Source: Flaccisagitta enflata (taxonomy: Eukaryota). From it: DNA of 64,000 bases. Shown here piece after piece: positions 12,201 to 64,000 of this stretch. Each line of letters opens with the position of its first letter. Position 1 is the first letter of the stretch. The notes under the pieces are model-generated. The model saw only the letters and a list, made by a program, of their open reading frames with translations, did no database searches and was not told the origin of the DNA. The stretch covers positions 48,670,001 to 48,734,000 of the forward strand of contig OZ231126.1 of assembly GCA_965153355.1 (NCBI GenBank), in the 5' to 3' direction. The position numbers and the translations under genes were made by a program.

Positions 12201-13140
12201 ACCTCAACTCTGGTGTCTGTAATATTTGTATCCATTTTTGGGCAGCGGCCCCGAAGGAAACGAAGTCCTGTAGAACACGGACTTTTGTTCGTTCATTCCT
12301 TCGTTCGTTCGTGCGTGCATGCATCCCCCCTAGGCCCACTCAAGCCTGAAATTGTCCCTCCCAGGGCTGGAGTCTACCCTCTCAGGCCTAAAATCTGCCC
12401 TCTCAGTCCGTGCATCTGCCCACTCGGGCCTGAAATCTATCCTCTCAGGCCCGAAATCTGTCCTCTCAGGCCCTAAACCTGCCCTCCCAGAAACAAGGCC
12501 TGAGAGGGTAGATTTTAGGCCTAAGAGGGTAGATTTCTGGCCTGAGAGGGCTTGGGGGGGAAAAGACGGACACACGCAATAACAAACAAACAAACGAACC
12601 AAAGTCCCCCTGTGTTCTACAGGACTTTGTCCCTTTCGGGGCTGCTACCCTGCCTCTCATCCCCAATTACAATCATGCAAAGCAGGGCAACGGGTATCGC
12701 TGACCACACATTGCCCTTGGGCGACCTGTTGTGCCTTCTCGCACATCTCTATAAAGTCATGTCCGTCTGTCTATAGGTAAATCTGTGGGTCGGTCACGCA
12801 AACATTGAAATTGCGCAAATGTGAAACGGCTGATTCATTCCATTCATTCATTCATCCATCACGTTTATTCACTATTTCTTATTCAGCGAGGCGCACATAT
12901 TGGCCATAATTTGGCCTTGTTCTTTCTGTCAGTTTGCCCGGAGTGGTGGTGCATCGTTTGAAGAAACAGAACGACGATCTTTTCAAGGATTTGGACCAGA
13001 AATCCAAACGGATTTCTCAACTGGAAAATGAAAAGGCGGTTCTGATTCGGGAATTGTTCGACGCGCGGGCCCAAGCGTCGGCCGATGGCTTCAGCGAACG
13101 CAGAAACAACAACGCCACTGTCGACAAAACATTCATGTGA
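8216..13140 (+). CDS. SAPCD2: Suppressor-APC-domain protein (SAPCD2-like), 3' exons: 8216-8366(?), 10857-10958, 12102-12160, 12933-13140
   Basis: Spliced frame [44 protein letters not shown]...|...[39 protein letters not shown]...DKTFM* resembles the recalled SAPCD2 C-terminus (KSERITQLEQEKSALIKQLFEARA...DSTFI). GT-AG sites and phases are consistent. Confidence 0.8.
8462..8944. mobile_element. Two HINE-like family B elements (8462-8652 +, 8769-8944 -)
   Basis: Terminal hairpin AGTCGCGT(GC/AGC)ACGCGACT, (GGTC)n/(GGAC)n tract, other end GTATCCGGCCTTGTT-like. More copies at ~7640-7872, 33730-33945, 50040-50185, 51535-51715 and 56747-56985. Confidence 0.7.
9149..9435. repeat. (CT)n and degenerate (CA)n microsatellites
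   Basis: Direct inspection. Confidence 0.95.
10857..10958 (+). CDS. SAPCD2: SAPCD2-like exon (second half of Suppressor_APC domain)
   Basis: [25 protein letters not shown] acceptor; AAG|GTAAGA donor. Confidence 0.75.
11700..11997. mobile_element. hAT-type MITE
   Basis: CAGG...CCTG ends with 8-bp TSD TAAAGAAA on both sides. Same family as 52719-53033. Confidence 0.8.
12102..12160 (+). CDS. SAPCD2: SAPCD2-like exon ([19 protein letters not shown])
   Basis: Phase 0 to phase 2, matching both neighbours; CAG|GTAATG donor. Confidence 0.7.
12238..12730 (+). mobile_element. HINE-like family A element in SAPCD2-like intron
   Basis: TTTTGGGCAGCGGCCCC start, internal 21-bp repeats in two opposed blocks, end GGCAACGGGTATCGCTGACCAC...GGGCGACCTGTT. 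Confidence 0.75.
12933..13140 (+). CDS. SAPCD2: SAPCD2-like terminal exon (coiled coil)
   Basis: Acceptor [31 protein letters not shown]...TFM-stop. Confidence 0.85.
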
Positions 13141-27194: not shown

Positions 27195-27593
27195 AGAGAG
27201 AGAGAGATGCAGAGAGAAGAGAGAGAAACAGACGTGCAAAGGGAGTGAAAGACAGTCAGACGGAGTCAAAGGAAAAGAAACAGCAATCACAATATATTCC
27301 AAAATTCATTGGCCAAAACCCCGCATATTCGATTTTTTTTCTCAACAGCAAATCGGCAATTGCCTTAATCGGCATTTCATTCTAATTTCTACATAAGAGT
27401 CATAACATACCTTCTCCTAACTTCTGCAGCTTTTCTCGTGAGGCGTCAAAGTCTGGTCTAGGGGGCGCCGGCGGGATTAAGAAGGCGCCGTATTCTTCGT
27501 TCTCCACGAAACAATCGTGAAGCCAAATGAATTCCTCGTGTTGACGAACCACAGAAAACTCGCGCTGCTGAAACACGCTCAACGTCGTCTGGA

Positions 27594-27676
<83 letters not shown>

Positions 27677-27710
27677 TATAAAGTTATGCAGGAGGTGAGT
27701 AGAGAGAGGA

Positions 27711-27745
<35 letters not shown>

Positions 27746-28776
27746 GACGAACAGACAGAGAAGAGGAGACAAAGACAAATAGACAGAGATAAACAGAAAC
27801 AGACAGACATACAGGGACAAACAGACAGATAGACAGACAGACAGACAAAGAGAATCAAACAGACAGAGACGCGAGTAATAATACATCGGGCAAAGGAGGG
27901 AAGAAAGAATGAAAAGAAGGATGGAAAAAGATGGTGGAAAAAATGAGAGCAATTTTATCAAGAATACAAAATCTTTAAGCAATAGCCCAAACTGCGAACG
28001 CCTGATTTATATTCTCGATCGAAGTGACGGCGAATCTACAGCAAATAGAAATAGAAATAGAAATAGAAATAGAAATACATCCGTCACAATATGGGAAAAC
28101 TTGGCGATGGGGTGTGTGGTTGCTGTGGGTAGGGAAGAGGAGGTGGTGGGTAGAGAAGAGGAGGAGGAGGAGAAGGAGGGGGCAAATTGCCGGGAATGAA
28201 AAGTCGGTTTCTCAATGAAGTAAAAAAAGAAAAAAAGGTGTCCGAGGCGAAAAACGGCCTTGACAACAACGACAGTCCAATTTGCATTTGGACCGTCTCT
28301 CAGCGGCCGATTCACCACAAAATTTGCATTTAGATTAAAAATAAATCTCGAAAAGTACAGCCGGGGAAAAAAAGAGACCACTTCCGTTCAGAAAGGAGAG
28401 GGAGCTGGGCTTGAGCTTGACGCGAGGGGATAGGGTCACGGGATAGGGCCACGCTCTCCGTCCGGGGAACTCTTTCCGGCCAATTTGAGTGCGCGCCATC
28501 TCGGATTCACTGACTTCAACCGTGTAAAAAAGAAAACTTTTGCGGTAGTTATAGTACTAGGTACTGTAAGGACGGGAGGGGGACGGTGGATTTCGTAATA
28601 TACTATAGCTTCCTTCTTTTAAAAACATTGCTGTTCCTTTAAATAGAAATATTATAAATCCCGAGGGACATGTTAAAGAAGGACAAGGATGATAATCTTT
28701 TTCTGTTTCTGTCTTTTTCGCGATTTATTATTCTCTTTCTTTTTTCTTCTTATTATCTGTAAGAGTTAAATATTTT

Positions 28777-33196: not shown

Positions 33197-33590
33197 TCAG
33201 CAGTGGCCCTGAAGGGGACGAAGTCCTGTAGAACACAGGGGCACTTTCATTTGTCCGTTCGTCTGTCCGTGCGCCCCCCCCTGTTCCGCAGGCCTGAAAT
33301 TCACCTTCAGGCTTTGAATCTACCTCTCTCAGGCCTGAACTCTGCCCTCCCAGGCCTGAAATCTGCTCTCTCATCTTCATGGCCTGAGAGGGCAGATTTC
33401 AGGCCTGAGAGGGCAGATTTCAGGCCTCAGAGGGCCAGGGGGGACGGATGGACAAAATTGAAAGTCCTGTGTTCTTACAGGAGCTTGTCCTCTTCGGGAC
33501 CGCTGCCCGCTCCTCATTCCGATTTACAACCATGCAAAAATATGGCAACGGGTATCGCTGACCACGTATTGCCCTTGGGCGACCTGTTTT
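33197..33590 (+). mobile_element. HINE-like family A element
   Basis: Same subTIRs and end GGCAACGGGTATCGCTGACCAC...GGGCGACCTGTT. Relatives with CCCAAATCCCAGCC repeats at 21558-21890, 32560-32940, 34631-34930 and 54250-54690. Confidence 0.7.
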
Positions 33591-38221: not shown

Positions 38222-41041
38222 GTGGGAAGAGCTTTTGTCGAACGCACATCTTGTGCTCCTTACCTCAACGTTTTGGTCCTCATTCCGGATTAAGCATTGC
38301 GTTACTGCTTCTCCCCCAAAAGGCAATCGCTACTATCATCACATTTCCCTGTAATCTTTTATTCATTTCGCCGATACAATCATCCTATTTAACATCCCTT
38401 TGTTTCGATTCTCATTTCTTTCTAGGTGAAAGACCAGGCCGTTTGCGGTTCTTGTTGGTCCTTTGGGACGACTGGGACCATCGAAGGCCGCATCTTTTTG
38501 GCGACAGGAATGCGGGTCCGGTTGTCGCAACAGTCGCTCGTCGATTGCTCGTGGGGTCAAGGCAACGACGGATGCGATGGTGGAGAGGACTTTAGGTGAG
38601 ACCGAATCTAAAACCTGGTCCACTACTTCATGTTTTGAATTTTCCTGCTGAAAATTGAGGCCATTTCTCTGTCCAGACCTGCCCTCTAAGACTTGGTTAT
38701 TGTTTGACTTAGGGCCTACAAGCACATTCAGGCGCACGGTATTCCCTTGGAGCGCGATTATGGTCGCTATCTGGGAATCAACGGCGTCTGTAAGCAGAAT
38801 TTTACCGAAAAGTATTTCCTGCAAGATTGGGTTAACATTCCCTCTGGAGATTTAGCGGCCCTCAAAGTGGCGCTTTTCGAGGAGGGCCCGATCTCCGTCG
38901 GTATCGACGCCTCACATCCAAGCTTTGCTTTCTACAATCAAGGGGTAAGCTTTGACACCGAGTTTGACTGCTTCATAGCTGCGGATTTTGGCTACCGAAA
39001 TTATCTGCCAAGAAGCATGTAGAAGCCGGGTCACAGTATCGTTGCGGACGGGTGGGCGGAGGCATCCAACCCCCATCACACACAAACATCCACAAGAAGT
39101 AACTAAAAGTAAAACGTTCCGTTTTTAGATACATCATCGCATCCTTTAAGAGGGTCTGTCCGTCCGTCCGTCTGTCCGTCGGTGCGTCCGTCGGTCCATT
39201 ACGCCTCTTCTAATATCACGCAGATGACGCATCTAGTTGCCCGATCGGGCTTGTTAATATCGTATGTATTCACACATCAAAATAAAGTGTAGCACAAAAA
39301 CAAAGAGCAAAAAGAAAATAGCAAATCGTTACAGCTAAATCAAATTTTTTCAACCAATTTGGTTGAAACTTAGTATGGAATTTCTAAATGGAAGGACTCA
39401 ACATATGATTGTAATTCATTAAGATTTTAGCATGCTCAACGGCCAAACTGGCCTACCACCTATCCAGCCAACCTCTTAAAAGTGAAAATTTTACATAACT
39501 TTGATATTTTTCAACTGATTTGGTGTAAACTTTGTATATTGTCAACACCATTTGACAATGCCGTTTGACAACGGCATTTGACAACGCCATTTGACAATGC
39601 CATTTGACAACGGCGTTTAACAACGCCATTTAACAACGCCGTTTAACAATGCCAAATCCACTCTCATAGCTATATCATCAATATGATTTTGATGGTGATT
39701 AAAACCTACTTTAGTCACTTGTTAGTCTCAACTCTGAAGGGTATATGATAGTGTTCAGCGGATTTGGTCTGTTTAAAGGAATTTAATTTGAGAATCTCGG
39801 TTGTGCGCTGACCGCCCCTATCAGCTTGATTCAGTGGCATGGTGGACTTCGACTTCAAGGTATTGCATCATCCACTTCAAGGTATGGCATCATCCACTTC
39901 AAGGTATGGCATCATCCACTTCAAGGTATGGTATCATTGACCTCAAGGTATGGCATCATCGCCTTCAAGGGTTCCTGGTTCATCATCATGGCTTTCCAGG
40001 TTTGCTATCATGGATTTTGGGTTTGTCTTCATGGACTTTGGTGTGCCACCATGGACTTTAAGGTTTGTCTTCGTAGACTAAAAGGTATGCCATCAGAGAC
40101 TTCAAGGTATGCCATCAGGGACTTCAAGGTATTTCATCAGAGACATCAAGCTAAGCCATCATAGATTTCAAGGTATGCCATCATGGTTATGCGTCGTGTA
40201 TCTTCTCTAGTCGCGTTTGCGCGACGAAAAAGCTTCAATAATTACAGTCCCATGGCCCAAGCCGTGGGACTGTAATTTTGAAACTTTTCCACTTATCAAC
40301 TTGATCATCACGGACCAATGGACTGACGGCTAGACAAAGCCTCTTATAGAGTTGCGTGTCCGCAACTGAAAACGCATTTTTGATCCTGATGTTGACGGAG
40401 GAATTAATTTTATATCCCTTTTGGCCAGGTTTACTATGAACCGAAGTGCGGAAGCTCTGAATTTGACCTAGATCATGCCGGTAGGTGAAGGACTTCGGGG
40501 AGAAAATATGTTTTCCCTGCTGGTGTGATGCGATTTGTGAACAAATTCCGGGTGTATAAAAGTTGAGCACCGCTAGAGCGCACTCTCTATCAAGGCATGC
40601 CCGCCTACAAGGCATATAACTTGCTGTCCCCTAAGAGATGTTGTTTTTTCAATGTCTGCAATAAAGCTGCTTCGCTATAAAGAATAAATTGGCCCAGTCC
40701 CTTGGAATGCGCTCTAGTAAAACTCAAATGTATTTGAGTTGTGGTGTTTGGCTCATGACATATTGGAGCGGGGGTATGGTTAAGGGTGTTGAAAAAAAGA
40801 ATAAAAACGATGCCGAATTTCCAGTTCTGAAATCTTCATTGTATTTGATCGGATTTCGTTATACCCCAATTTTTATTCAGTTTTGGCTGTGGGTTACGGC
40901 GAGCTTCACGGCGAAAAATACTGGTTAGTAAAGAACTCTTGGTCCACTTATTGGGGAAACGACGGGTACGTCCTCATGAGCCAAAAAGACAACAATTGCG
41001 GAGTAGCTACCGCCGCTACCTACGTTCTTTTGAAGAAGTGA
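37993..41041 (+). CDS. Papain-family (C1A) cysteine proteinase, 26/29-kDa proteinase / cathepsin-L-like; last five exons only
   Basis: Exons 37993-38221, 38426-38595, 38713-38944, 40429-40480, 40881-41041 with consistent phases. Motifs [34 protein letters not shown] (catalytic Cys), [31 protein letters not shown] (His), [25 protein letters not shown] (Asn). Confidence 0.95.
38426..38595 (+). CDS. Cysteine proteinase exon (catalytic Cys)
   Basis: [14 protein letters not shown]...GCDGGEDFR. Confidence 0.95.
38713..38944 (+). CDS. Cysteine proteinase exon
   Basis: [21 protein letters not shown]...[20 protein letters not shown]. Confidence 0.93.
39835..40190. repeat. 21-bp minisatellite (CATCCACTTCAAGGTATGGCAT-like)
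   Basis: CTTCAAGGTATG recurs at ~21-bp spacing. Confidence 0.8.
40429..40480 (+). CDS. Cysteine proteinase exon (catalytic His)
   Basis: [17 protein letters not shown]. Confidence 0.92.
40881..41041 (+). CDS. Cysteine proteinase terminal exon
   Basis: [26 protein letters not shown]...YVLLKK-stop. Confidence 0.95.
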
Positions 41042-41741
41042 GTTTCTCAATTCTCACGATATGGCAGACCGCTCACAACCAAAATTTCGTTTTATCTTGC
41101 TCAGTTGATTTTGTTCTCCTGCATATGTATGTTCCGTGGTTGACGACCATCGCTGTCATTATTCTTCGATACCAATTTTTCAAGTTTCCTTACCTCTCGT
41201 GTATTATGGATACAGTTAATGTATCAGTTAATGCAAACAAAATTTAAAGTTAGTTTGTTCTCTGAGGATGAGATTGTGATGAGTACAGTCCTAAGGTTCA
41301 TGAGGCGCATTGGTATCTCGGGGGGCCAATTTGAAGCTTGAGAGCAGAGTATCTAGGTGTACTCTCTTGAAAAAAAGTAAACGTACCTCAAGAAGCTTTG
41401 ATTGCTTTTTGGATATATAAACGTTATCGTCTATTCTAAAATAGCTTGAACAATCATTAAATGATTTGAAATTAAATGGTATTCCTATTTTTAAATAAAT
41501 GCATAAATGCTGATAGGCGAAATTTTGTTTCCAAGATAGTAAGTAGTCAAATTTCCTTTCCCCCCACCCTGGACCCTTTTTGGGCAGCGGCCTCAAAGGG
41601 TTGATGTCCTGTAAAGCACAAGCTGGTTGAACCCTTAAATATTCGCCTTCTACTTTATGATTTGGTCTGGATTCAGCTTTGTCAGGCCTAAGATTAGATC
41701 TTAAAGGCCTCGAAATCATCTCTCACAGCCATAAGCGTATG

Positions 41742-42068
41742 CAGGGTGGCAGAAAATTCTATAGGTCCAAGGCACAAATTTTTGCAGCGCTATAAGTCCG
41801 ACTCTTAAAGATCAATAATTATTATGAAAACATGAAATTACTAGTTTTCTGCATTTTTCTTTTCAATTCATGGAAACTAAGAGTTCCCACAACAAAAGTA
41901 AAAGTGATCAAAACTAATACCCTATTTATCCTTTTGATTTTTCCATTTTCCGCTTACTTTTGTCTTCTTTTCCCCAATTTTTTTCCATTATCAAATCTAT
42001 AAGTCCGACTTTTGTGCTATAGTTCCGAGGCACATTGTGCCAGTTGTGCCCCTATTTCTGCCACCCTG
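41742..42068. mobile_element. hAT-type MITE
   Basis: TIR CAGGGTGGCAGAAA with 8-bp TSD AGCGTATG. Confidence 0.9.
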
Positions 42069-43392
42069 AGCGTATGGCGTGGAAACCGAAAGGGCTGTCG
42101 GCAACCAGTTTTAAGTCCATCAGAGCTTCAAGCCCAACAGGTTTTGTTACTTATTCATTCTTTTCTAAACACAGCGTCACCATACATAGACAAAGACAGC
42201 TTTGAGTGCCCTGAGCCGCGACTGATGCAGAAGTGTCATATACCACTTGGGGAACGCCAATCACCCGCTGGGAATTTTTTTCGAAGGCAAAAAAATGATT
42301 TTTCCTTGTTAGTATGCAACTCCTCTTTTGATAAGATGTTGGCTTAATTCACTTGCCTTTTTTCAGAATGAAACTCAATTTGTTCAGCAACCCCTTGACC
42401 GATTTAGTTGAAATTTTACATGAATAAACGTCTTAAAAAATGCTGTCAAACAAGTCCAATCCCAGAATTGGGGCTTTACTAGAAGATGATTTATGATTTT
42501 CTAAAGATATAAAAAATGTAACGATTTAAGCTAGAAGCTTTTGTATTCATTCTTCTCATCAAAGTGATATTAAAAGAAAATTTGCTTTAGATAACATGAA
42601 TTGAATAAACACAGCTACCAAATTCATGTGGGTGGGCAGGGGCAGTGATAAGAAAGGCTAACCCAAGCATTTGGGCCGGAGCAGTAACACAAGAACCGCC
42701 CAAAAGGCCAAAAAAGCTAACACAGACTTACAGACCAACGGACCAACTGACCTCTCACGCATGCAATAAGGCTGGATACACGGTTACCCTAGTTGTGTCC
42801 AGGTGGGCAGGTGCAGTGCTGGAGAAGGTCACTAGAGCATCTGGGCAGGAGCTGTATGCTCAAAAAACTCAAAAACGATGAAAAAGTAAAAAGGGGACCA
42901 ACCGACCAACCGACCGATGAACTGACATAGCGGGGTGTAGAGTTGTGTAGCACGCGACTGAAAATTGTATTTGTCAGCTTTGAAGTATGCTTTTAACTGC
43001 TTTCCCACGTATCATTTGAGTTTAGTTCCTATTGAGTTGTTTTTAAGGCTAAGTGCTAAGATAAGAAAAAATCTATTACATTACATACTGATATACTTAG
43101 TTCTTTTAAGAACATTCTTACCAAGGCAAGGATTGCTGGAACTGGTCATAAAGCGCATTTCAATTTGATTTTGGGCAATACAGCTTGTTTATTCTACTCA
43201 AATTTTCTGACATCGATCACACAAGTCTAGCACAGCCCCACGCGCACACACATGCACAAACACTGTCACACACAAGGACATGACATTGAACACACATACA
43301 TATGTAAACACAGGCACACACACACACACTCTCAGATATAAAAATGCGACGAAAAGTCAAAGGCAAAGGGGGGGGGTGAACATTACCGCTAC

Positions 43393-43870
43393 TTGACTGC
43401 TTTCAAAGCATTTGATGCAGTAGTCACTTTCTGTTTCGGTTATGGACTGGATCCTTGCTATATGACCTACTTGAAAGATTCTGAGAACGCCTGGTTTAAT
43501 TTGAACATGATTCCAAAATTACATATCTTGCTCAAACATTTACCGGAGGAATTGCAGCAAACAGGTGAACATGCAGAAAATCCTTGCAAGAAACATGTTT
43601 TTTTTGGTTCAATAATGAACATCCTAATATGATGCACCATCCATTGGTTAGACTGTCGGTCTTGCCAGATGCGCCAACTAAGCCAGTGAGTCTAGCCTTG
43701 ATCCTACAAATATGAATTATATAGGGTGACAAACATGGTCTCCACTATATGCCTTGATGCCTGTTTGAGGTGTGATTTTGGAGGAGATGGTGGATGAAAG
43801 TCTTCACGCAGACTTTGATAAACATTATCAAGGTTTCATCATCAAAGATTTGGATGCGTCATCATACCGG
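43393..43870 (+). pseudogene. Degenerate Chapaev/Transib/RAG1-type DDE transposase C-terminal fragments
   Basis: 43393-43565 reads AFKAFDAVVTFCFGYGLDPCY...MIPKLHILLKHLPEELQQTG (HxxxxH zinc motif). 43769-43870, in another frame, reads GVILEEMVDESLHADFDKHYQGFIIKD (catalytic-Glu region). Confidence 0.75.
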
Positions 43871-43984
43871 TGTGTGTGTCCATCTGCTGTGTGTATGTGT
43901 GTGTTTGTGTGTGTGTGTGTGTGTTTTACTAATTGTGTTTTCTGATCTAGTACTGTAAAAAGGTATATTTTCCCCAAATTTCCT

Positions 43985-45100
43985 TTTTGGCCGATGTCCT
44001 GTAGGACACAGGGTTGAATTTCCAGACATCCGTACGTACGTCCGTACGTACGTCCCCCCCCCCGAGGCCCCTCTCAGGCCTCAATCAGCACTCTCAGACC
44101 CCAAATCAGTCCTCTCAGGCCCCAAGTCAGCCCTCTCAGACCCAAAATCACCCCTCTCAGACCCAAAATCAGCCCTTTTAGATCCAAAATTAGCTCACTC
44201 AAGCCCAAAATCAGTCCACTAAGGTACTACATCAGCCTTATCAGGCCCAAAATCAACTATTTCAAGCCTAAAATCAGACCTCTCAAACCTAAAATTGGTC
44301 TCAAATCAGCCCTCAAAATGACCCTCTCAGGTTCAAATCTGCTCTCATCCCTGATCTCATTACTGTTCTCCAATCAATCAACTCAGTCCTTAAATGTGCT
44401 TTCTCAGGACGTCTGGAAATTCACCCGTGTCCTACAGGACATCGGCCCTTTGGGGCCGCTGCCCTGCTCCCACTCAGCTTCTTCAGCTAATCACTCCAAG
44501 CAGGGCATCGGGTACCGCTGACCATGTGCGATCCTTGGATGACTAGTTTTCTCTTTTTTGGGCAGCGGCCCCAAAGGGGGAACACAGGGGACTTTCGTTT
44601 GTCCCTTCGTCCGTTCGTTTGTGCGTTTAAGCGTCCCCCCCCAGGCCCTATCAGGCCTGAAATCTGGCCTCTTAAGCCTGAAATCTGTCCTCTCACGGCT
44701 GAAATCTGCCCTCTCAGGCCTGAAATCTGCCCTTGCAGGCCTTGAATCTGCCCTCTCAGACCTGAAATCTGTCTTCTCAGGTCTGAAATCCGCCCTCTCA
44801 GGTCTGAAATCCACCTTTTCAGGCCCTCTCAGGCCTTACGTCTACCCTCTCAGCCTGAGAGGGCAGATGTCAGGCCTGAGAGGGTAGATTTCAGGCCTGA
44901 GAGGGCAGATTTCAGGCCTGAGAAGGCCTGGGGGAGACAGATGGACAAACAAATGAATGGATGAACGAAAGTCCCCCTGTGTTCTACAGGACTTTGTCCC
45001 CTTAAGGGCCGCTGCCCTGCTTCCCCTCACTCCAATTCACAATCAGGCAAAGCAGGGCAACGGGTATTGCTGACCACATATTGCCCTTGGGCGACCTGTT
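43985..45100 (+). mobile_element. Two head-to-tail HINE-like family A elements (43985-44548, 44556-45100) inside the Chapaev-like element
   Basis: Each has subTIRs, 21-bp repeats and an end at GATGACTAGTT or GCGACCTGTT. Confidence 0.75.
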
Positions 45101-45284
45101 CCCCCTTTGATTTACTTCCCCATCTCCAAACCCTTTGATTTTCCCCCCCCCCCCCATGGGGTGGAACTCAATATTATACAGACCTGGAAAAATTCCAAAT
45201 TTATGAAATGTTTGCCGAATCATATTATGATCAAGCCTGGGCATATGGCCGGGTCAGCATTGCATGTGTGTATGTCTATTTGCT

Positions 45285-45338
<54 letters not shown>

Positions 45339-48300
45339 CACAAAACAGGGTCCGACAAATTTTTTTGCTGCCTACAAGCAATGTTCTCTATCCGATTACT
45401 GCTAAAAAATTTATACGTGTTTTTTTTGTTGTAAAAAAGGAAACTATCAAAAACAAATACTCTCAGGTGAATTTTTTTATCAGGGGGAAGTGGAAAGGAA
45501 AAAATGGAAAATATACCATTTTTTCTGTTTGGGCAGGTAAACCAACTTTCTGGCTGCATGTTTTGCGGGTCTGTTGACCTTAATGGGCTGGGGTTGGGCT
45601 GGGGCAGGGGTGCAAACCCCTAGAGGCAATTTTTTTGCAAAAAATAGATGGGCTCATTTCATTCCAAATTTTCTGAAACGTCTAGATATCAAATCTTCAA
45701 AAAATAATTTTTTTTGGAACAAATCGTCAAAATTTTTTTATAAATTCCAGGTTCAATGGGGTGGGGTGGGGTGGTGAAGATGTAACAAAATCGACCAAAA
45801 AAGTATAGCTCATTTGATTCTAAATTGTATAAAACGTCTAAATTCCATAGTGTAAAAACAACTTTTTTTTTATGGAATTTGACAATTTTTTTTCTTAGTC
45901 TGGAGTTTCTGTCTAATGTCTTAATGTCAGAAACTCCTGATATTCACTCTAAGGCTTATATTCTACTGGTTTTGTCACATGGAATGGCCATTATGGCAAA
46001 GGTGGGAAAATTCATGGATGAGGAAGGTATATTACAAGTCAGAGCTTGATTCTTTTGTACAGTAGGGTAAATATGGGGGTGAGACAAATGTGTGACAATT
46101 ATTTGCTCAAGCGTCTTAATGTCAGAAACTCCTGCAACTGCGTAAACAAAGTCAGAAAAGGAACCTAACTATGTCCAATTATTTTCAGGTGCCTTATGCG
46201 CCCTCACACTACACGATCAAAAAGATTGAAGCAATTTTTAAATGCCGTGTGAATGTATTGGGCATTGATTTGCGCACTTGTCAGGTGTCATAGAAATTTT
46301 GTATTTTTTGGTCAAGACGCAGACAGTTAGAAGTCGCTGTAATAGTTGTTTTGATAGAAACAGTTACAGGTTTTTTGCTAGTGTTACTCAAAAAAAACTT
46401 ATAGGGTAGAATGGGGGCTGAAACTTGATATGTCATGGTGTACAGGAACGGGGAATTTAGGTTTCATTTCACTTTTTGCTTGTGATATGGATTTAGGATC
46501 AAATATTATTAAGATTTCAATCGAGTATTTTTGATATAATCTATAAAGTGTTTTACAAATGTTTTTAAACCCAGAACACTGACTATTGTTGCATGACGAT
46601 CAGGAATAAAAATTAAATATATGAATTCCTTAGAAAAATGATGAACAAAATTTCAAAACGTTGTTAGGTGAAATTATATCATGACCTCAGAAAAGAAAAT
46701 TTTGCATTTCTAAGAACATGGCCCTTTTCTTAGATGTTTTTTAAAAAAGGCCATGTGTTTGGAAATGCAAATTTGTTTATTTCTATGCAATGATATAATT
46801 TCACCTAACAGGAGTGAGATGACAAAGATTAATTTTCTATAAAAAATCTTCTTTTTTCCACCTTTTTTCAATATATTATGTACCTCAAATCTGTATGTCC
46901 GATATTATCTATGCAAAAATTTATTGTTCAACATTAAAAAAATATGTTTTCAATAAAAAAAAATAAAAATAGATAATATAGAAAATATCTAAAAAATTGT
47001 GATGACGCATGAAATTTCTTCTTCCCGTACACTGCGTCATAAGTATTCCATCATTATCGATAAATATTAGACAAATTTGCCTTATCACGCTAAAATCACG
47101 CCTTTTTCGACCAATTTTAAGCATGAATTGAAGGGCAAGATGAGGAAAATTTCATGGAATAGTGCCACATGTGTCCCGGAAATTACCAATAAGATCGTGT
47201 TTTATCATTTTGAACAAAAATATAGCCTCTTGGTACTTACAGCACTGCCTATTTTGTAGTAACAATACCTTAAAAGCTACTTCCGCCTGATTAAAAAAAT
47301 CACCCTCAATATTTTTTAAGCAAATAGACTATCCTGACTTTTTAGTCATGGACACGCAACTTTACACCTTGCCATGTCAGTCCGTAGGTAGATAGGTCGG
47401 TCAGTCCAACCGCCCGTCACATTTTTGAATTCCAAGCTTTTTTTGCATTACTGCTCCTGCCCAACTGTCCGCAACTGGATTGCCATGTTTGGTTTTATGC
47501 CTCTTCTTTGCACCTTTTTTTTTTCCATTACTTTTTCATTTTCATTCCTCTTAACCCTTCTTTTTCCCTCTCTCTTCTGCCTACAAAGTGGCTAGCTGCC
47601 TTGGAGCAATGCTCCTGTGCTACCGCACTTGGTCGTACCTTGATTATCACATATATATGTGTGTTCAATGTCATGTCCATATGTGTGTGTGTGAGTGTTA
47701 GTGCATGTGTGTGTGCCTGGGCCTGTGCAAGACTTGTGTGATCGATGTCAGAAAATTTGAGAAGTTGAAACAAGCTGTATTGCCCAAAATCAAATTGAGA
47801 TGCGTTTTATGACCAGTTCCAGCAATCCTTGCTTTGGTAAGAATATTCTCCAAGGAACTAAGTATATCAGCATGTAACATACAGTGGAACCCCGCAATAA
47901 CAGCCTCGCTTTTAAAGGTTCCCCATTGATAAAGGTCAACATTTTAAAATCCCAAATGATATTTTTTAATGTGATTTCACCTCTCTTAAGTGGTTATCCT
48001 GAGATAAAGGTGATAAATCTTCAGTCCCAATGGGACTGATGAGGCGGGGTCTTACTGTAATAGATTTTTTCTCATCTTAGCAGCTTTCTCATCTTTGTTG
48101 TTTTTGAGCTTTTTGAGCATACAGCTCCTGCCCAGATGCCCTAGTGACCTTCTCCAGCACTGCTCTTGCCCACCTGCACTCAATTAGGGTAGCCCTGTAT
48201 CCAGCCTTGTTAGTTGCATGCGTGAGAGGTCAGTTGGTCCGTCAGTCTGTAGGTCTGTGTTAGCTTTTTTGGCGTTCTTGCATTTTGAGCGGTTTTTGTG

Positions 48301-49386
48301 TTACTGCTCCTGCCCAAATGCTTGGATTAGCCTTTCTTATCACTGCCCCGGCCCACCCGCATGTGACATTGGTAGCTGTGTATATGACCTTGTGTTTCAT
48401 ATCTATGTTATCTAAAACAAATTTTCTTTTAATATCACTTTGATGAGAAGAATAAATACAAAAGCTTCTTGCTTAAACCGTTACATTTTTTAAATCTTTA
48501 GAAAATCATAAATCATCTTCTAGTAAAGCCACAATGCTGGGATTGGACTCGTTTGACAGCATTTTTTAAGAAGTTTATTCATGTAAAATTTCAACTTAAT
48601 CGGTCTAGGGGTTGCTGAACAAATTGAGTTTCATTCTGAAAAAAGGCAATTGAATTAAACCAACATCCTATCAAAAGAGGAGTTGCATATTAACAAGGAA
48701 AAATCTCTTTTTTGCCTTCGAAAAAATTTCCCAGCGGGTGATTGGTGTTCCCCAAGTGGTATAAGACACTTCTGCATCAGTCGCGGCTCAGGGCACTCAA
48801 AGCTGTCTTTTTCTATGTATGGTGACGCTGTGTAAACTTAAATTACATTCGCATGGAACAACTGCGTCCTTATTTTTTAAGAAAAACGCACATTTTCTAT
48901 CAATCTTCCCCTATGTATGCACTTTCTCCTGTTTTTCTTTTTCTCTCATTCTGTTTTTTTCTTTTTTGCCATTTTTTTTTACATGGGCGTAAGTCCGATA
49001 GGGGTGTAAGTTCGACAAAAAGGGACGTCCCTCCCCGAACACCCACGCTCACAGCCCTGAGATCAGCTCTCTCAGCCCCATACTCTGAATTTTTGTCTAA
49101 AACACTAAAACTACGCGCTCTCCAACCGGAAATCATTAGAGATCTGAAATCAGTTTTCACAGCCTTGAGATCAGCTCTCATGCCTGAGGCCTAAGTAAAT
49201 ACCTCTGACTCACTGAGGCCTAAAATCATCACTCTTGAGACAAAATTAGGCCCTCTTCAGGTTCCCCTTCCTCTTCTCTGTACATCAACATCAAGAACGA
49301 GAAGTTCACCAGCTCACTGTCCTTATACGGTTGTTGCTCTACTCTCACTCCATTACTTTGAAACGGCTATTAATCATGGCAATGGG

Positions 49387-50276
49387 CAGGCCTTTTTTTA
49401 GAGCGAACCCGCGAGCCCGTGGCTCTCTATTTTGCTGTCGGGCTCTCTGGTTTCACTGGCTCTGAGCCCGGCTGGCTCTCTCAAAATTGAAATCATGTTT
49501 TGTGCTCAAATGGATTGGAAGATTCTCGTAAGATCATAAGAAGAAAACCCAATTCACAAGTTAAGAGTGACTAAAATGAATTTCTACCATAGTCACCTTG
49601 TCAAATGTAAATTGATCAACAAGTAAAGCATCTCATTTTTTCATGTAAATGCGTATTATATTGATGGTAGAAAAAGTTGGCTTGTGATGGTTTTAGCTTT
49701 CTTTAAAACCGATTTATTTCTTTTATGAGAGAGCTGAAAAATTACCATTGAAAGATGACAGTGTCATGAGGCTCACACATTTTTACAAAAAGGGGCAAAA
49801 TGTTCAGTTTTTCAAGTCGTTTGCACGCTACTCTATAACTCACAATTCTGTTCATCTGTTTGTCTCGTCTGTTGGTCCATTCATTGATAAGTCCATCTGT
49901 TGCTCTATTGGTCGGTGACACTGTTTTTTTGGCATTTACAAGTGATTTTAATGTCGCTTCTCCTGCCCAATTTTCTAGAAAATTTCCTCACTACCCTCCT
50001 GCCCACAAACAATTCAAGTAGCCTTCCATTCAGCATTGTTTTTAGTTGCGGACACGCAACTCTATAAGAAGCTTTATCCGTCCGTCGGTTGGTCCGTTAG
50101 TGAGCACGAGTTGAAAAGTGGGAAAACGCGCATTTCTGCCCCTGCCCACCCATCCGCAACTGATGGCCGTGTATCCGGCCTTGTTTTGCCGGGCTCGCTG
50201 TTTTGCTGTCGGGCTCTGTAAATTTGTGAGGAGAGAGCCCGGTTGGCTCTGCCAAAAAAATAAAAAAAAAGGCCTG
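49387..50276. mobile_element. hAT-type MITE inserted in a HINE end and itself containing HINEs
   Basis: CAGGCCTTTTTTT...AAAAAAAGGCCTG with 8-bp TSD GCAATGGG. Confidence 0.85.
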
Positions 50277-55356: not shown

Positions 55357-56184
55357 CGGTAGAACTCGTCTAGACTTGAGATAACGGGGGCAAGCATTGT
55401 AGGAAAACAAATGAAAAAGATTGATATTTTAAACATAGACTATAAAAATGATGCTTTATCACCTATGATAGATGGTTGCCATGGAAGCGCATTTTTATGT
55501 ATTTTTGCTAGAATATCAATATTTTGAGAATTTTTTTGAGGGAACATTGCTTAAAATCAAATTTACTACAACTTTTGGTCATTTTGTAGATGAAGTATCG
55601 CACTTGAGTTTCCCGAAAATTCCCCCAGAGCAAACTTTCAATTGGCGAGTAGATATTAAGCTCTAAAACACCCCTAACCCTAACACTAGCCCTAACCCTA
55701 ACCTGATCCCTAAGACTATCCCTGACCTATCCCTAACCCTAACACTAACCCTACCCCTAACCCTAACCTGTTACCCGCTTTTGAGTGATTGACCGCTAAA
55801 AACAAAAGACAAAAGGATGCGAACTCTCCTACTTCGAGACCCAACTTTCCCACAGTATGTTCTATAAAAATGTTGCTAGTCTAGTGGTTGCTAAGGGTTG
55901 TCAAACATGGATACGCTCCCTAGTAACAGCCAAATTAGCGATATTCTTACTTAATATATTGTGGGAAAATTGTAATTATTTTGATTTTCAGCAATTTTCC
56001 TTAGAACTCTCTCAAAATATTGATATTTTAATGAGAATACATGGAAATGTTTTCCTAAGTCAACCAAGTTTCATGGGGAATAAATTATTCTTTTATTATT
56101 TATAGTCCAATATCAGCTTTCTAGTTTCGTTTGTTTTTCCATAATGCTTGCCCCCGTTATCTTAAGATTAGACGTGATCTACTG
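55357..56184. mobile_element. Tc1/mariner-type MITE containing (CCCTAA)n-like tract
   Basis: TA|CGGTAGAACTCGTCTAGACTTGAGATAACGGGGGCAAGCATT ... AATGCTTGCCCCCGTTATCTTAAGATTAGACGTGATCTACTG|TA. Confidence 0.8.
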
Positions 56185-58564
56185 TATCTAAATATGACGC
56201 ATCTCTTGGCCTTGATCTGAATAGCGTCACAAGAAGGTGAAAGAGATATCAAAATGCAATGTTTGTCATCCAGAGAATGGCTTACAATATGGAACATCAT
56301 TTGGTGCGTTCATTTTACGCTACCCTACGGATAACTTTTTGGTTGGTCACCCATGTTTTTTTGGAGCTTAGGTCGCTTTTACAAGTGTTTTTGCTCCTGC
56401 CGACCCTGTCCCTGCCCGAGTATCTGGCCTGGTTGTCCTCGACGATCGATTTACTATCTATAAAATAAAAATCTACACTTAATGTTTTGATTGATATCTG
56501 TTGAATGACTTAGCTGAATCTAAAAAAAATTGGTGAGGGGATTGTAGCCCTATTGAACCTTGCCGGAGGGTTATGAAACTTGGCAAATATTATATTTTAT
56601 ATACGCATTTCGAAGAAGTAGATAGGTGTCTGTGGTCTACTACCTCTCATTACCCACCCTGCTTTACGTTTCTCACGATCCACACGTTTTTCTCACGGGC
56701 ATGATAATTCTGCTTGTGTTGTGACTTGTGAGAGTAAGGATTAGAAAACAAGGCCGGATACACGGCCAATAAGTAGTCGCTGGCGGGTGGGCAGGGGCAG
56801 TACACCGAGGGGCAGGGGCAGTCAATCAGTGGGCAGGGGCTGTATTTTGGGTGGGCAGGGGCTGTTATGTTCAGAAACCACAAATACGGTCAATTTCGCG
56901 GCATCCGAAATTTCGCGTGACAGACAGACAGACAGACCAAGGGACACACCCTCTTATAGAGTCGCTTAGCCAGCGACTTAAAAAACGGGCAAGCAATTGC
57001 CCTTGCGCTATCATTAACTTCATAATAGTCTTCTTTTGGATACGTCTTAAAATTCCTCATCTTTTAGCATTATAAACCCCTGGCATTCATGACGGCGAAC
57101 GGTGGCTCTACTGGCTCTACCGGAGAATATTAACTGCCAAACGGGGTGAAAAGTTTGCGACAGAATGCCGGTCACGCAGTATTATGAAAGGTACTCTGAT
57201 CGTTTTATTTATTCTTTTGTCAGTACTACTCCTATCAACCTCATTGCTCTGTATGCGATTTTGACCTTCACGGGGTAAGGGGGAATTGGAAGTGGGAAAT
57301 TGAGTATGGGCGCGTGGGCCTAGGGAGCTGCGAGGCACCTCAAGGATCAACCATCAACTTAGCCTAAGTTCGTTTTCCTCGCCTCTTTGCTCATGGCAGC
57401 TCAAGTCCCTTTCTCCACTCCATTCATGTCATCGGACCGAATTATTGGACTGAATGGAAAATGAACGTCTTTCTTTTGTACTTAATAGTATATTTGACAA
57501 TGGCAAAATTGTTTTTTAGTTGATCTGAAAAATGGTAAGTCAAGTAACTCGGGGTCACAATTACGCTGCGGACGGATGGGTAGGCTTGGGTAGGGGCGTC
57601 CAACCCCCATCCACACCCGAACCCTCAACCCTACACACTTACGTGTACAAAACATTCATAAAAAGTATTTTAGACATCCGTTTTTTTCCACTTTTAAACT
57701 CGATCAGCACATACCGACAATCTGATGGACCATCGGACCGACAAACAGACAAAGCCTCTAAAAACTAAAAACATGAAATATAAATTTAATTAAATATAAA
57801 AAAAGTTGTTGCTCAAAAAAAAGTTCCTCCCTATTGAAGTTTTGCATGCAACAAGGCTTCTTCCACCTCTCGCCTCTACCCCCTACCTACATAACTACCT
57901 ACATAGCTATGTACCTACATACCTACACACCCACTTAGAGACGCGAGGACGCATACTATTACAAGAAGTTTCTATGCAAGTTGCACTCCCCGTTAGGTCC
58001 CTTGATGAAAGGAAATGTTTTTCGATTGTAATCGTGGCGTGCTGTCGCCGTTTAATTCTTTGATTGGTGTAGACAAGTGGTGAGGTCATAATTCCAACTC
58101 TCACTGTCCCTTATTGGTTAAAGCGATCGATTTCTTCTGGGTCGAGGGAGAAACCACGAAGCATTCACGTGAGTAAAAAATAAGAAAAAAAAAAACTGAA
58201 ATGGTTTGTGGAGTTAGGATGGATTCGACGATGTTATATTTCAAAAAGCAACCTGCCATTCCTGGGAGCCCAAATGAATGATTGTAGAGATGGAAGATCA
58301 CTACTTTTGGGGCCTTCAATGAAATTTCAAAATTTAACCCCTGAGCTCAGTCATGAAGATGAAATGGAATGGCCTTTGAGGGGGGAGTCTAAGTGACACA
58401 ATTTACATAAAATCTGACCACGCTATGTGAAATGGCGTGAAATTTTGATGTCAACCTGATGATTTGATATCTAAACTCCCAGGCGTTTAGTCACAATCAA
58501 ATTTTACATTTTGTTGGTCCTCGAAGTGTGACAGAATTGATACGCTCGTCGGACGATCCTCGTA

Positions 58565-59369: not shown

Positions 59370-59936
59370 GTCAACGCCGTTTGACAACGCCGTCTGACAG
59401 CGCCCGTTTGACAACGCCGTCTGACAGCGCCCGTTTGACAACGCCCTGTTGACAACGCCCGTTTGACAACGCCCGTTTGACAACGCCCGTTTGACAACGC
59501 CCGTTTGACAACGCCCGTTTGACAACGCCCATTTGACAACGCCCATTTGACAACGCCCGTTTGACAACGCCCGTTTGACAACGCCCGTTTGACAACGCCC
59601 GTTTGACAACGCCCATTTGACAACGCCCGTTTGACAACGCCCGTTTGACAACGCCTTGACAACGCCCTGACCGTTTGACAACGCCCGTTTGACAACGCGT
59701 TTGACAACGACGCCCGTTGACAACGCCGTTTGACAACGCCCGTTTGACAACGCCCGTTTGACAACGCCCGTTTGACAACGCCCGTTTGACAACGCCCGTT
59801 TGACAACGCCCGTTTGACAACGCCCGTTTGACAACGCCCGTTTGACAACGCCCGTTTGACAACGCCCGTTTGACAACGCCCGTTTGACAACGCCCGTTTA
59901 ACAACGCCCGTTTAACAACGCCCGTTTAACAATGCC
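59370..59936. repeat. 14-bp minisatellite (TTTGACAACGCCCG)n, ~40 copies
   Basis: Direct inspection; related to the 13-bp arrays at 13898 and 39545. Confidence 0.95.
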
Positions 59937-60326: not shown

Positions 60327-63300
60327 CACCCTGCATCAAAATCACCAACAACCAATACAAAATCCCACCAACCACCCAACCCACCCAAAACACCAACACC
60401 CTGCATCAAAATCACTAACGACCAATACAAAATCCCACCAACCACCCAACCCACCCAAAACACCAACACCCTGCATCAAAATCACCAACGACCAATACAA
60501 AATCCCACCAACCACCCAACCCACCCAAAACACCAACACCCTGCATCAAAATCACCAACGACCAATACAAAATCCCACCAACCACCCAACCCACCCAAAA
60601 CACCAACACCCTGCATCAAAATCACCAACGACCAATACAAAATCCCACCAACCACCCAACCCACCCAAAACACCAACACCCTGCATCAAAATCACCAACG
60701 ACCAATACAAAATCCCACCAACCACCCAACCCACCCAAAACACCAACACCCTGCATCAAAATCACCAACGACCAATACAAAATCCCACCAACCACCCAAC
60801 CCACCCAAAACACCAACACCGTGCATCAAAATCACCAACGACCAATACAAAATCCCACCAACCACCCAACCCACCCAAAACACCAACACCGTGCATCAAA
60901 ATCACCAACGACCAATACAAAATCCCACCAACCACCCAACCCACCCAAAACACCAACACCGTGCATCAAAATCACCAACGACCAATACAAAATCCCACCA
61001 ACCACCCAACCCACCCAAAACACCAACACCCTGCATCAAAATCACCAACGACCAATACAAAATCCCACCAACCACCCAACCCACCCAAAACACCAACACC
61101 CTGCATCAAAATCACCAACGACCAATACAAAATCCCACCAACCACCCAACCCACCCAAAACACCAACACCCTGCATCAAAATCACCAACGACCAATACAA
61201 AATCCCACCAACCACCCAACCCACCCAAAACACCAACACCGTGCATCAAAATCACCAACGACCAATACAAAATCCCACCAACCACCCAACCCACCCAAAA
61301 CACCAACACCCTGCATCAAAATCACCAACGACCAATACAAAATCCCACCAACCACCCAACCCACCCAAAACACCAACACCGTGCATCAAAATCACCAACG
61401 ACCAATACAAAATCCCACCAACCACCCAAAACACCAACACCCTGCATCAAAATCACCAACGACCAATACAAAATCCCACCAACCACCCAACCCACCCAAA
61501 ACACCAACACCGTGCATCAAAATCACCAACGACCAATACAAAATCCCACCAACCACCCAACCCACCCAAAACACCAACACCGTGCATCAAAATCACCAAC
61601 GACCAATACAAAATCCCACCAACCACCCAACCCACCCAAAACACCAACACCGTGCATCAAAATCACCAACGACCAATACAAAATCCCACCAACCACCCAA
61701 CCCACCCAAAACACCAACACCGTGCATCAAAATCACCAACGACCAATACAAAATCCCACCAACCACCCAACCCACCCAAAACACCAACACCGTGCATCAA
61801 AATCACCAACGACCAATACAAAATCCCACCAACCACCCAACCCACCCAAAACACCAACACCGTGCATCAAAATCACCAACGACCAATACAAAATCCCACC
61901 AACCACCCAACCCACCTCAAACACCAACACCGTGCATCAAAATCACCAACGACCAATACAAAATCCCACCAACCACCCAACCCACCCAAAACACCAACAC
62001 CCTGCATCAAAATCACCAACACCAATACAAAATCCCACCAACCACCCAACCCACCCAAAACACCAACACCGTGCATCAAAATCACCAACGACCAATACAA
62101 AATCCCACCAACCACCCAACCCACCCAAAACACCAACACCGTGCATCAAAATCACCAACGACCAATACAAAATCCCACCAACCACCCAACCCACCCAAAA
62201 CACCAACACCGTGCATCAAAATCACCAACGACCAATACAAAATCCCACCAACCACCCAACCCACCCAAAACACCAACACCGTGCATCAAAATCACCAACG
62301 ACCAATACAAAATCCCACCAACCACCCAACCCACCCAAAACACCAACACCCTGCATCAAAATCACCAACGACCAATACAAAATCCCACCAACCACCCAAC
62401 CCACCCAAAACACCAACACCGTGCATCAAAATCACCAACGACCAATATAAAATCCCACCAACCACCCAACCCACCCAAAACACCAACACCGTGCATCAAA
62501 ATCACCAACCACCAATACAAAATCCCACCAACCACCCAACCCACCCAAAACACCAACACCGTGCATCAAAATCACCAACGACCAATACAAAATCCCACCA
62601 ACCACCCAACCCACCCAAAACACCAACACCGTGCATCAAAATCACCAACGACCAATACAAAATCCCACCAACCACCCAACCCACCCAAAACACCAACACC
62701 GTGCATCAAAATCACCAACGACCAATACAAAATCCCACCAACCACCCAACCCACCCAAAACACCAACACCGTGCATCAAAATCACCAACGACCAATACAA
62801 AATCCCACCAACCACCCAACCCACCCAAAACACCAACACCGTGCATCAAAATCACCAACGACCAATACAAAATCCCACCAACCACCCAACCCACCCAAAA
62901 CACCAACACCGTGCATCAAAATCACCAACGACCAATACAAAATCCCACCAACCACCCAACCCACCCAAAACACCAACACCGTGCATCAAAATCACCAACG
63001 ACCAATACAAAATCCCACCAACCACCCAACCCACCCAAAACACCAACACCGTGCATCAAAATCACCAACGACCAATACAAAATCCCACCAACCACCCAAC
63101 CCACCCAAAACACCAACACCGTGCATCAAAATCACCAACGACCAATACAAAATCCCACCAACCACCCAACCCACCCAAAACACCAACACCGTGCATCAAA
63201 ATCACCAACGACCAATACAAAATCCCACCAACCACCCAACCCACCCAAAACACCAACACCGTGCATCAAAATCACCAACGACCAATACAAAATCCCACCA

Positions 63301-63737
63301 ACCACCCAACCCACCCAAAACACCAACACCGTGCATCAAAATCACCAACGACCAATACAAAATCCCACCAACCACCCAACCCACCCAAAACACCAACACC
63401 GTGCATCAAAATCACCAATGACCAATACAAAATCCCACCAACCACCCAACCCACCCAAAACACCAACACCGTGCATCAAAATCACCAACGACCAATACAA
63501 AATCCCACCAACCACCCAACCCACCCAAAACACCAACACCGTGCATCAAAATCACCAACGACCAATACAAAATCCCACCAACCACCCAACCCACCCAAAA
63601 CACCAACACCGTGCATCAAAATCACCAACGACCAATACAAAATCCCACCAACCACCCAACCCACCCAAAACACCAACACCGTGCATCAAAATCACCAACG
63701 ACCAATACAAAATCCCACCAACCACCCAACCCACCCA
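60327..63737. repeat. 70-bp tandem satellite, ~49 near-identical copies
   Basis: Unit CACCSTGCATCAAAATCACCAACGACCAATACAAAATCCCACCAACCACCCAACCCACCCAAAACACCAA. Confidence 0.98.
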
Positions 63738-64000
63738 AGCCTTGGTTTTCATCTTCGCTGCTGAACGACGGTCAACGTCCCTCCCACCTCCACGTTTCCA
63801 GTTTTTATAGATTTGCAGCTTTGATCAAAACCCGTTTAGTTCTGATTCTCCCAGTACAGTGCAAATTGTCACTGGCCAGACTATCATGTAATTTCAAAAG
63901 TTTTCTTACTCCTTGGTAAGATGTGTCGTTCTGCCTTTTAGGGTCAAACTTGTTTTTGTATCCAAATCCAGTGAAACTCACTTTTCCTTTGTATAGTCAG

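Follow-up and report, generated by a model that had tools for sequence, protein, structure and literature searches.

A dead transposon in the Flaccisagitta enflata genome with a relic of a RAG1/Transib-like transposase, most likely of Chapaev type

What kind of transposon occupies positions 42170-48832 of a 64,000-nucleotide stretch of the Flaccisagitta enflata genome (contig OZ231126.1, positions 48,670,001 to 48,734,000; hereafter the window, meaning the whole stretch that was analysed), and do its ends bear on the origin of the recombination signal sequences (RSSs) of V(D)J recombination? An original prediction, made from the sequence, had described a 6.66-kb transposon with inverted repeats of about 1.1 kb, a TAAA target-site duplication, RSS-like ends and the remains of a transposase. 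We found a single 6,663-bp element at this position. In our judgement it is very probably a dead, non-autonomous cut-and-paste transposon of the EnSpm/Mirage/Chapaev/Transib/RAG1 clan, its lineage most likely Chapaev-type, that belongs with an enzyme of about 670 amino acids with a RAG1/Transib fold. The copy at 42170-48832 is itself an ordinary dead transposon and is of interest as a way into its family.

The element and the remains of its transposase

The structure of the copy and its duplication were established from the two arms and the bases that flank them. The left arm (about 1.14 kb; 42170-43305, + strand) pairs with the right arm (about 1.18 kb including a 178-nt insertion; 47649-48832, - strand) in two blocks, 42170-42876 with 48832-48100 (90.2% over 733 columns) and 43081-43305 with 47877-47649 (89.1% over 229 columns), and 42877-43080 is unshared. 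The outer 429 nt of the arms are 95% complementary. The four bases TAAA stand immediately before the left end (42166-42169) and again right after the right end (48833-48836). Only a 4-bp duplication matches; a 3-bp reading (AAA versus TAA) and a 5-bp reading both mismatch at this copy. The size, arms and duplication of the original prediction stood up to these measurements, and the arms, the duplication and the two peptides described below are all far beyond chance. An Rfam scan of 41000-50000 gave no match.

Similar copies are present elsewhere. We compared the contigs of four runs over 41500-49500: two DNA runs of one organism, one run of a marine metagenome and one of a marine RNA library (coded X1, X2, X3 and X7, where X7 is the RNA library, which can contain DNA). 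Depth figures from these contigs are sums over contigs, not copy numbers. Contigs of all four runs covered the element. The proposed boundaries agree with one X1 contig (record 8) whose first base is exactly 48833 and with an RNA-library contig that begins two bases before 42169. Some contigs were about 1-3% divergent from the window copy (4/314 nt in X3 record 18, 5/240 in X1 record 2 and 6/283 in X7 record 25), indicating that similar copies exist outside the 42170-48832 locus.

The long arms are composite. Each contains a stretch (42568-43101 and 47908-48441) similar to a repeat that is far more abundant than the rest of the element, with a summed contig depth of 0.3-1.4 million in 42568-43101 and a poly-A loose end after 42964. 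The inner border of each arm has a (CA)n tract (43239-43330 and 47649-47715), and one might speculate that these tracts promoted the deletion of the first ~560 codons of the transposase gene.

The element contains about 95 C-terminal residues of a transposase of about 670 amino acids, in two exon-like pieces. The original prediction had picked out the peptides PKLHILLKH and ESLHADFDK, which lie in that order in the frames 43342-43632 (+) and 43769-43945 (+). Piece 1 (43375-43564, +; found by phmmer, tblastn and hhalign) carries an HxxxxH-PE motif (IPKLHILLKHLPE), and piece 2 (43770-43870, +; found by tblastn and hhalign) carries a catalytic-Glu motif (EEMVDESLHADF). Between the coding pieces is an interruption of 205 nt that begins with GT and ends with AG (43565-43769, +), a putative phase-1 intron. 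When the 61 aa of piece 1 were searched exhaustively by phmmer against 1.84 billion representatives, 25 proteins matched at E<=1e-3. The top match was 94% identical, shared the read-through into the interruption, and had two extra residues that correspond to a 6-nt in-frame insertion after 43494 in other copies. Among the 25 proteins was P0023, a full-length relative of 672 aa. When piece 1 and piece 2 were aligned by hhalign to an alignment of 40 sequences of the P0023 family (A1), they corresponded to P0023 residues 560-616 (E 2e-10) and 628-656 (E 1.1e-5), respectively. The relic retains the H-x4-H and the Glu motif, and the Asp residues and the CxxC are gone with the deleted part.

The copy is dead, as had been predicted, and non-autonomous. 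We searched the whole window by tblastn with 120 family proteins and found significant matches (E<0.01) only at 43342-43630 and 43772-43870, that is, at the two relic pieces; the latter was matched by 26 family proteins (best E 1.8e-8). Matches elsewhere in the window (for example, at 58202-58351 and 237-329) had E values of 0.02 at best and were set aside as noise. The original observation that no RAG2-like gene is present also held: the element has 40 reading frames that reach 60 aa or more, and none of them gave a RAG2 or kelch match.

The matches of P0018 on either side of the interruption are contiguous (residues 8-72 and 77-107), and this continuity, together with the GT...AG borders and phase 1, is why the 205 nt are best read as a putative intron. 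No spliced reads over 43565-43769 were seen, and one RNA-library contig (X7 record 27) is unspliced across the start of the interruption.

Other searches were uninformative. The two peptides and two arm frames matched 0 Pfam families, and nothing scored in a word-index protein search among longer proteins with piece 1 and the fragment P0021 as queries. A phmmer search of both pieces against the PDB gave only two weak, unrelated rows (E 0.54 and 0.93). A scan of prokaryote genomes gave a 33-residue match in a Streptomyces contig that we judged to be due to chance, and no match was confirmed in a scan of viral contigs.

The transposase family and its lineage

The relic led to a large, unannotated family of animal transposases (about 670 aa) with no Pfam family above threshold. 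The P0023 family has 97 members at E<=1e-3, mostly 650-700 aa long and from metagenome or transcript-sized contigs; the sources named are a flatworm, a wasp and a beetle, whose proteins are annotated as 'hypothetical'. All 97 are unnamed or are labelled only 'hypothetical', 'unnamed' or 'uncharacterized', and none has a transposon family name from its source. The only Pfam records on the family are DUF1280 on one protein and two unrelated families on a longer, 909-aa match. The nearest Atlas clusters are mostly cnidarian. In alignment A1, D328, D407, C426 and C429 are invariant, H607, H612, E629 and E633 are at least 90% conserved, and there are several conserved Cys/His clusters in the N-terminal part.

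The core of the family transposase is clearly RAG1/Transib-like. We searched all PDB sequences with the A1 profile and obtained seven rows at E<=10, of which the top four were RAG1 (E 0.022, 0.059 and 0.059) and amphioxus RAG1L (E 0.067), with the second Asp, the CxxC, the HxxxxH and the Glu motif aligned. The other rows were tropomyosin (two) and a ZAD domain on the N-terminus (E 0.83); HzTransib was not retrieved at E<=10. Structural comparisons, made on the full-length relative P0023 and not on the relic, were consistent with this. The AlphaFold model of P0023 (mean pLDDT, the predicted local distance difference test score, of 84.5) had 49 PDB matches in Foldseek at E<=1e-3 (best 5.5e-12). 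The rows listed to rank 48 were all RAG1, BbRAGL or HzTransib, and the next kind of protein was the P element (3.4e-2). In VIA, model residues 217-672 superimposed on mouse RAG1 460-996 with Z 24.1 and a root-mean-square deviation of 3.2 A over 409 residues. The corresponding values for HzTransib were Z 22.7 and 2.9 A over 367 residues, and Z was 20.7 for BbRAGL, 12.8 for the P element and 8.4 for Hermes. The RAG1 nonamer-binding domain precedes the range aligned in the VIA match. These results establish the family and the fold of the lost enzyme. Based on the profile and fold alignments to RAG1, we conclude that the HxxxxH of the relic is the counterpart of the ZnH2 histidines of RAG1 and its Glu that of the catalytic Glu, as had been proposed for the two peptides and their order.

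The family has the traits of its clan. EnSpm, Mirage, Chapaev, Transib and RAG1 are described as having a C(2)C and an H(3-4)H motif as their hallmark, with termini of the form 5'-CA..TG-3' and target duplications of 2-5 bp (PMC12730594). Here, the CxxC, the H and the Glu are present in A1, the window copy runs from CACAGCG to CGCTGTG within TAAA, and P0023 has the RAG1/Transib fold.

The N-terminal domain shows a weak likeness to a ZAD domain. The N-terminal 215 residues of P0023 were modelled alone (pLDDT 85.1) and compared with 48,161 representative chains, of which only 10 had Z>=2. The six best were all ZAD domains (Z 4.3-2.6), matched at model residues ~8-71. Among 40 family members, Pfam found zf-AD in 10/40 and RAG1_imp_bd in 1/40, all below the cut-off. 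No solved NZD appeared in the structure library used for this comparison. The 'Chapa' domain of Chapaev is described as a two-finger, NZD-like domain with a ZAD-like first finger, and the same source reports that none was detected in Transib (2026 preprint).

We scanned metagenome contigs with the A1 profile and found 30 loci, at some of which the ends of the element could be read. The element at L006 (134-2791) starts with CACAGTT and is flanked by a CACC duplication, and that at L025 (8178-10490) starts with CATGGGT or CACGGGT (CAYGGGT) and lies between GACT duplications. The L006 family has a second copy, L009, in which homology stops at the L006 terminus. The L006 and L025 elements are 2.3-2.7 kb long with one gene each; both are decayed copies, of families other than that of L001, which has an intact transposase frame of 663 codons. 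The window copy, L006 and L025, the three elements with readable ends, all have CA(C/T) ends and a 4-bp duplication (3/3).

Other loci were less complete. At L001, L002, L005 and L007, the contig ends truncate the inverted repeats, which measure at least 107-261 nt. The cut left arm of L007 begins with CAAAAGC and is without an A-run at 22-24 nt; L007 was not counted for or against the A-rich block discussed below. In L007 (3138-3417), the right inverted repeat occurs twice in tandem, as 97% and 79% copies of the left arm. L019 and L026 have a common right end, the exact terminus of which is not fixed and for which no left partner was found, and they were left out of the end counts. They share the block GAC(C/A)AAAAATTG with GACCAAAAAA(A)TTG of L025. 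The block is GACCAAAAATTG in L019 (~11630-11661) and GACAAAAAATTG in L026 (~2960-2991), and the end regions are otherwise poorly alignable with L025. No end pair was found at the remaining loci examined (23), and blastn searches of all loci with the end sequences yielded no additional termini.

The lineage is most likely Chapaev-type, rather than Transib proper or a RAG1/RAG2 transposon. In Repbase usage, duplications of 4 bp are typical of Chapaev proper. We favour Chapaev over Transib because of the combination of CA(C/T) ends, 4-bp duplications and a ZAD-like N-terminus. The 4-bp duplication in 3/3 elements contradicts a Transib-type duplication, which is 5 bp (PMC1131882), and the window copy contradicts the 3-bp TWA duplication of Chapaev3. 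Duplications in the CMC group are given as 2-4 bp, and Chapaev (CMC group) has been treated as a clade of the Transib superfamily (PMC4411706).

Likeness to the known systems is uneven. With Chapaev, the family shares CAC termini, a short (4-bp) duplication, a core distantly like that of RAG1/Transib that carries the C(2)C and H(3-4)H motifs and, on a weak match, a ZAD-like first N-terminal finger; unlike Chapaev, the window copy has arms of about 1.1 kb that consist in part of an abundant repeat. With Transib (HzTransib) it shares the core fold, the CAC heptamer and, in the case of two relatives, an A-rich 9-mer located 22-23 nt from the end (7-8/9), whereas Transib has a 5-bp duplication and is described without the N-terminal NZD/Chapa-like finger, and here there are 4 bp, a ZAD-like finger and a spacer of 13 nt in the window copy. 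RAG1/RAG1L (the V(D)J recombinase, ProtoRAG and TransibSU) is the best structural match, with the D, CxxC, HxxxxH and E aligned and a heptamer likeness of 6/7. However, sequence identity is about 14%, the element has no RAG2-like gene, its duplication is 4 bp and not 5 bp, the RAG1 nonamer-binding domain is without an aligned counterpart, and there is no 12/23 asymmetry. Chapaev3, known from Anolis families (PMC3014272), has CAC termini and belongs to the same wider group, but has 3-bp TWA duplications and inverted repeats of 11-19 bp (PMC3014272), in contrast to the 4 bp and the long repeats found here.

The family enzyme is about 670 aa long and combines a ZAD-like N-terminal zinc finger with an AT-hook-like GRP motif and a DDE core in which the zinc motifs are CxxC and HxxxxH. 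By analogy with RAG1 and Transib, the life of such an element can be sketched. The enzyme would bind the CAC ends and cut by a RAG1/Transib-type DDE mechanism, possibly with hairpin formation on the flanking DNA, and re-insertion with a 4-bp stagger would leave the TAAA duplication. Since just the last ~95 residues survive in the window copy, this copy could presumably move only in trans, with enzyme supplied by an intact relative.

The ends compared with recombination signal sequences, and rival readings

The layout of the ends was as predicted. We scored the ends against the RSS reference CACAGTG / ACAAAAACC. The left terminus (42170-42198, +) is CACAGCG, a 13-nt spacer and ACAAAGACA (42190-42198), with 6/7 matches to the heptamer and 7/9 to the nonamer, the values originally given. 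The right terminus (48804-48832, -) is CACAGCG, a 13-nt spacer and AAAAAGACA (48812-48804), which we measured as 6/7 and 6/9. Shared clan ancestry accounts for the likeness of the heptamer to that of the RSS.

The nonamer-like block of the window copy alone is not evidence of an RSS-type end, as such a block is expected in about 2% of cases by chance. A 9-mer with at least 7/9 matches at one of six spacings (11-13 and 22-24) occurs at 2.2% of all window positions, and shuffled arms reached at least 7/9 to the RSS or Transib nonamer in 2-3%. On the + strand, 36 of the 1,134 CAC sites passed both the heptamer and the nonamer tests, one being the element and the other 35 lying in a 70-bp satellite at 60327-63738. 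None of the 791 CAC sites on the - strand passed, which means that the right end of the element fails. That 35 satellite sites passed the same test is a warning about chance RSS-like matches. The satellite consists of 48.9 copies with 98% matches and has an extreme C/A strand bias.

We also compared the ends with those of Transib, whose 38-bp end consensus consists of CACAATG, a 23-bp spacer and AAAAAAATC (PMC1131882). The window ends match the Transib nonamer at 5/9 and 6/9 with a spacer of 13 and at 2/9 with spacers of 22-24. Their nonamer position 6 is G at both ends with a spacer of 13. With a spacer of 12, positions 5 and 6 are A, but the score is 4-5/9. In a V(D)J-type signal, CAC goes with A at nonamer positions 5 and 6, the spacer is 12+/-1 or 23+/-1, and a 12-type partner is paired with a 23-type one. 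At spacers of 22-23, the relatives matched AAAAAAATC at 7/9 and 8/9 (L006), 8/9 (L009), and 7/9 and 8/9 (L025), for which per-end shuffle nulls were 2-9% for at least 7/9 and 0.2-1.1% for at least 8/9. In L006 and L025, A makes up 33-40% of the arms, which have further A-rich 9-mers at offsets 35-45 and 79-94. Spacing is identical at both ends of each element, without 12/23 asymmetry. The end motif AMAAAGACAG is not repeated subterminally; it is exact in the element only at the two termini, with one-mismatch occurrences at 46146 and 47334. Three families were compared, which are related by descent, and the consensus and spacings were chosen after seeing the data.

The protein offers one further point of comparison. 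A G-R-P motif preceded by R or P lies in a disordered (low pLDDT) stretch between the zinc fingers (P0023 ~122-125), and most of the 40 aligned family members retain it (G in 32, R in 27 and P in 32). We presume that it is comparable to the AT-hook-like motif of the RAG1 nonamer-binding domain.

Could the ends truly be two-part, with a CAC heptamer and an A-rich block at a fixed distance of 12/13 or 22/23 nt that are both recognised, the block perhaps by the GRP motif? Chapaev-type ends would then be of a '12-type' (13 nt, the window family) or a '23-type' (22-23 nt, the two metagenome families), and an RSS-type design common to Chapaev-type elements, Transib and RAG would predate their split. 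We regard this as a tentative idea that is more probably wrong than right. The 7/9 and 6/9 matches of the window ends at spacer 13, the 7-8/9 matches of L006, L009 and L025 at the spacing reported for Transib (PMC1131882), the shuffle nulls and the presence of the G-R-P motif in most family proteins all fit such a design. The chance satellite matches, the A-rich arms with their other A-rich 9-mers, the lack of subterminal repeats of the block and of 12/23 pairing, the start of the RAG1 fold match past the nonamer-binding domain, the small number of non-independent families and the choice of consensus and spacings after the fact argue against it. So does the G at nonamer position 6 of the window ends, positions 5 and 6 being described as essential (PMC1131882). 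In the excerpts it returned, a literature search found no publication tying Chapaev ends to a nonamer-like block. The original prediction of a Chapaev lineage with a heptamer-spacer-nonamer end is supported in its first half, the Chapaev-type assignment being favoured by the CA(C/T) ends and 4-bp duplications of the two relatives, and the nonamer layout is at the level of coincidence (~2%) in the window copy. The A-rich 9-mers of L006 and L025, at 22-23 nt, give the layout some independent support, from two families. We treat the connection to RSS origins as a hypothesis that has modest support across families. Should the two-part ends be real, a second, abundant lineage with intact genes would be open to work on how the RSS layout and nonamer recognition arose, beyond Transib and ProtoRAG.

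Two other readings concern the element itself. That two opposite insertions of a 1.1-kb repeat bracket unrelated DNA with an old transposase fragment, as the abundant repeat in both arms might suggest, is very improbable: the same 4 bases flank the outer ends and there is no such sign at the inner ends, the depth of the interior (~4-8 thousand) is of the same order as that of the arm tips (6-21 thousand; X1 and X2), and the family of the relic has other elements with CA(C/T) ends and 4-bp duplications. It is also unlikely, if less so, that the family belongs to a divergent branch of Transib, or to some other, unnamed lineage of the clan, and that its 4-bp duplication is a quirk. The near tie of the VIA scores for HzTransib and RAG1 and the Transib-like 9-mers at 22-23 nt in the relatives would suit that reading, as would Transib relatives with 3-bp and TA duplications (2026 preprint). 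Against it are the 4-bp duplication in all three elements, the ZAD-like N-terminal finger, of a kind that the preprint describes for Chapaev and reports as undetected in Transib, and the retrieval of RAG1/RAG1L but not HzTransib by the profile.

Several points weigh against our preferred reading of a dead Chapaev-type element. The Chapaev name rests on the ends, the duplication and a weak N-terminal match rather than on alignment with reference Chapaev, Chapaev3, Mirage or EnSpm transposases; duplication length, as just noted, is reported to vary even within Transib (2026 preprint). The ZAD match has a Z of at most 4.3, and Foldseek found nothing for the N-terminal domain at E<=1e-3. The profile E-values to RAG1 are marginal (0.02-0.07), and the P0023-type relative on which the fold comparison was made is just 38-42% identical to the relic over ~55-60 residues. 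The proteins nearest to the relic are short fragments, and protein searches found no close full-length or autonomous partner. The intron is something we infer, and on inference only.

Nested insertions and other features of the window

The element has at least three nested insertions, each missing from other copies. The first (43989-45098) is made of high-copy repeats with internal 21-nt tandem units, and the joint 43988->45099 was present in 12, 9, 4 and 1 contigs of X1, X2, X3 and X7, respectively. The second (46428-47038; 611 nt) contains an inverted repeat (46662-46810) and is missing from at least one other copy, as X3 record 22 connects 46109-46427 straight to 47039-47302. The third is the 178-nt insertion within the right arm (47880-48057), for which the joint 47879->48058 was present in contigs of X1, X3 and X7. 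When the nested insertions are discounted, the length of the family's own element is nearer 4.8 kb.

The repeat family of the first insertion is very abundant, with a summed contig depth in the millions. It has relatives at 3575-4081, 12235-12730 and 33200-33588, and two adjacent units are nested in the transposon. Rfam gave no match to the copy at 43989-45098, which was within the scan range; the other three copies are outside it.

Elsewhere in the window, a 727-aa open frame that runs off the window start (3-2186, +) matches RVT_1 (E 1.9e-39) and marks a retroelement copy. There is an interstitial telomere-like (CCCTAA)n array at 55672-55768 (~16 units, 71% matches) and a 14-bp tandem repeat at 59372-59936 (~40 copies, 90% matches), the translations of which yield spurious Pfam matches to PTN_MK_C and DAN. 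An open frame at 27400-27954 (-) has a PX-domain match (E 3.9e-6) and is probably an exon of a host gene.

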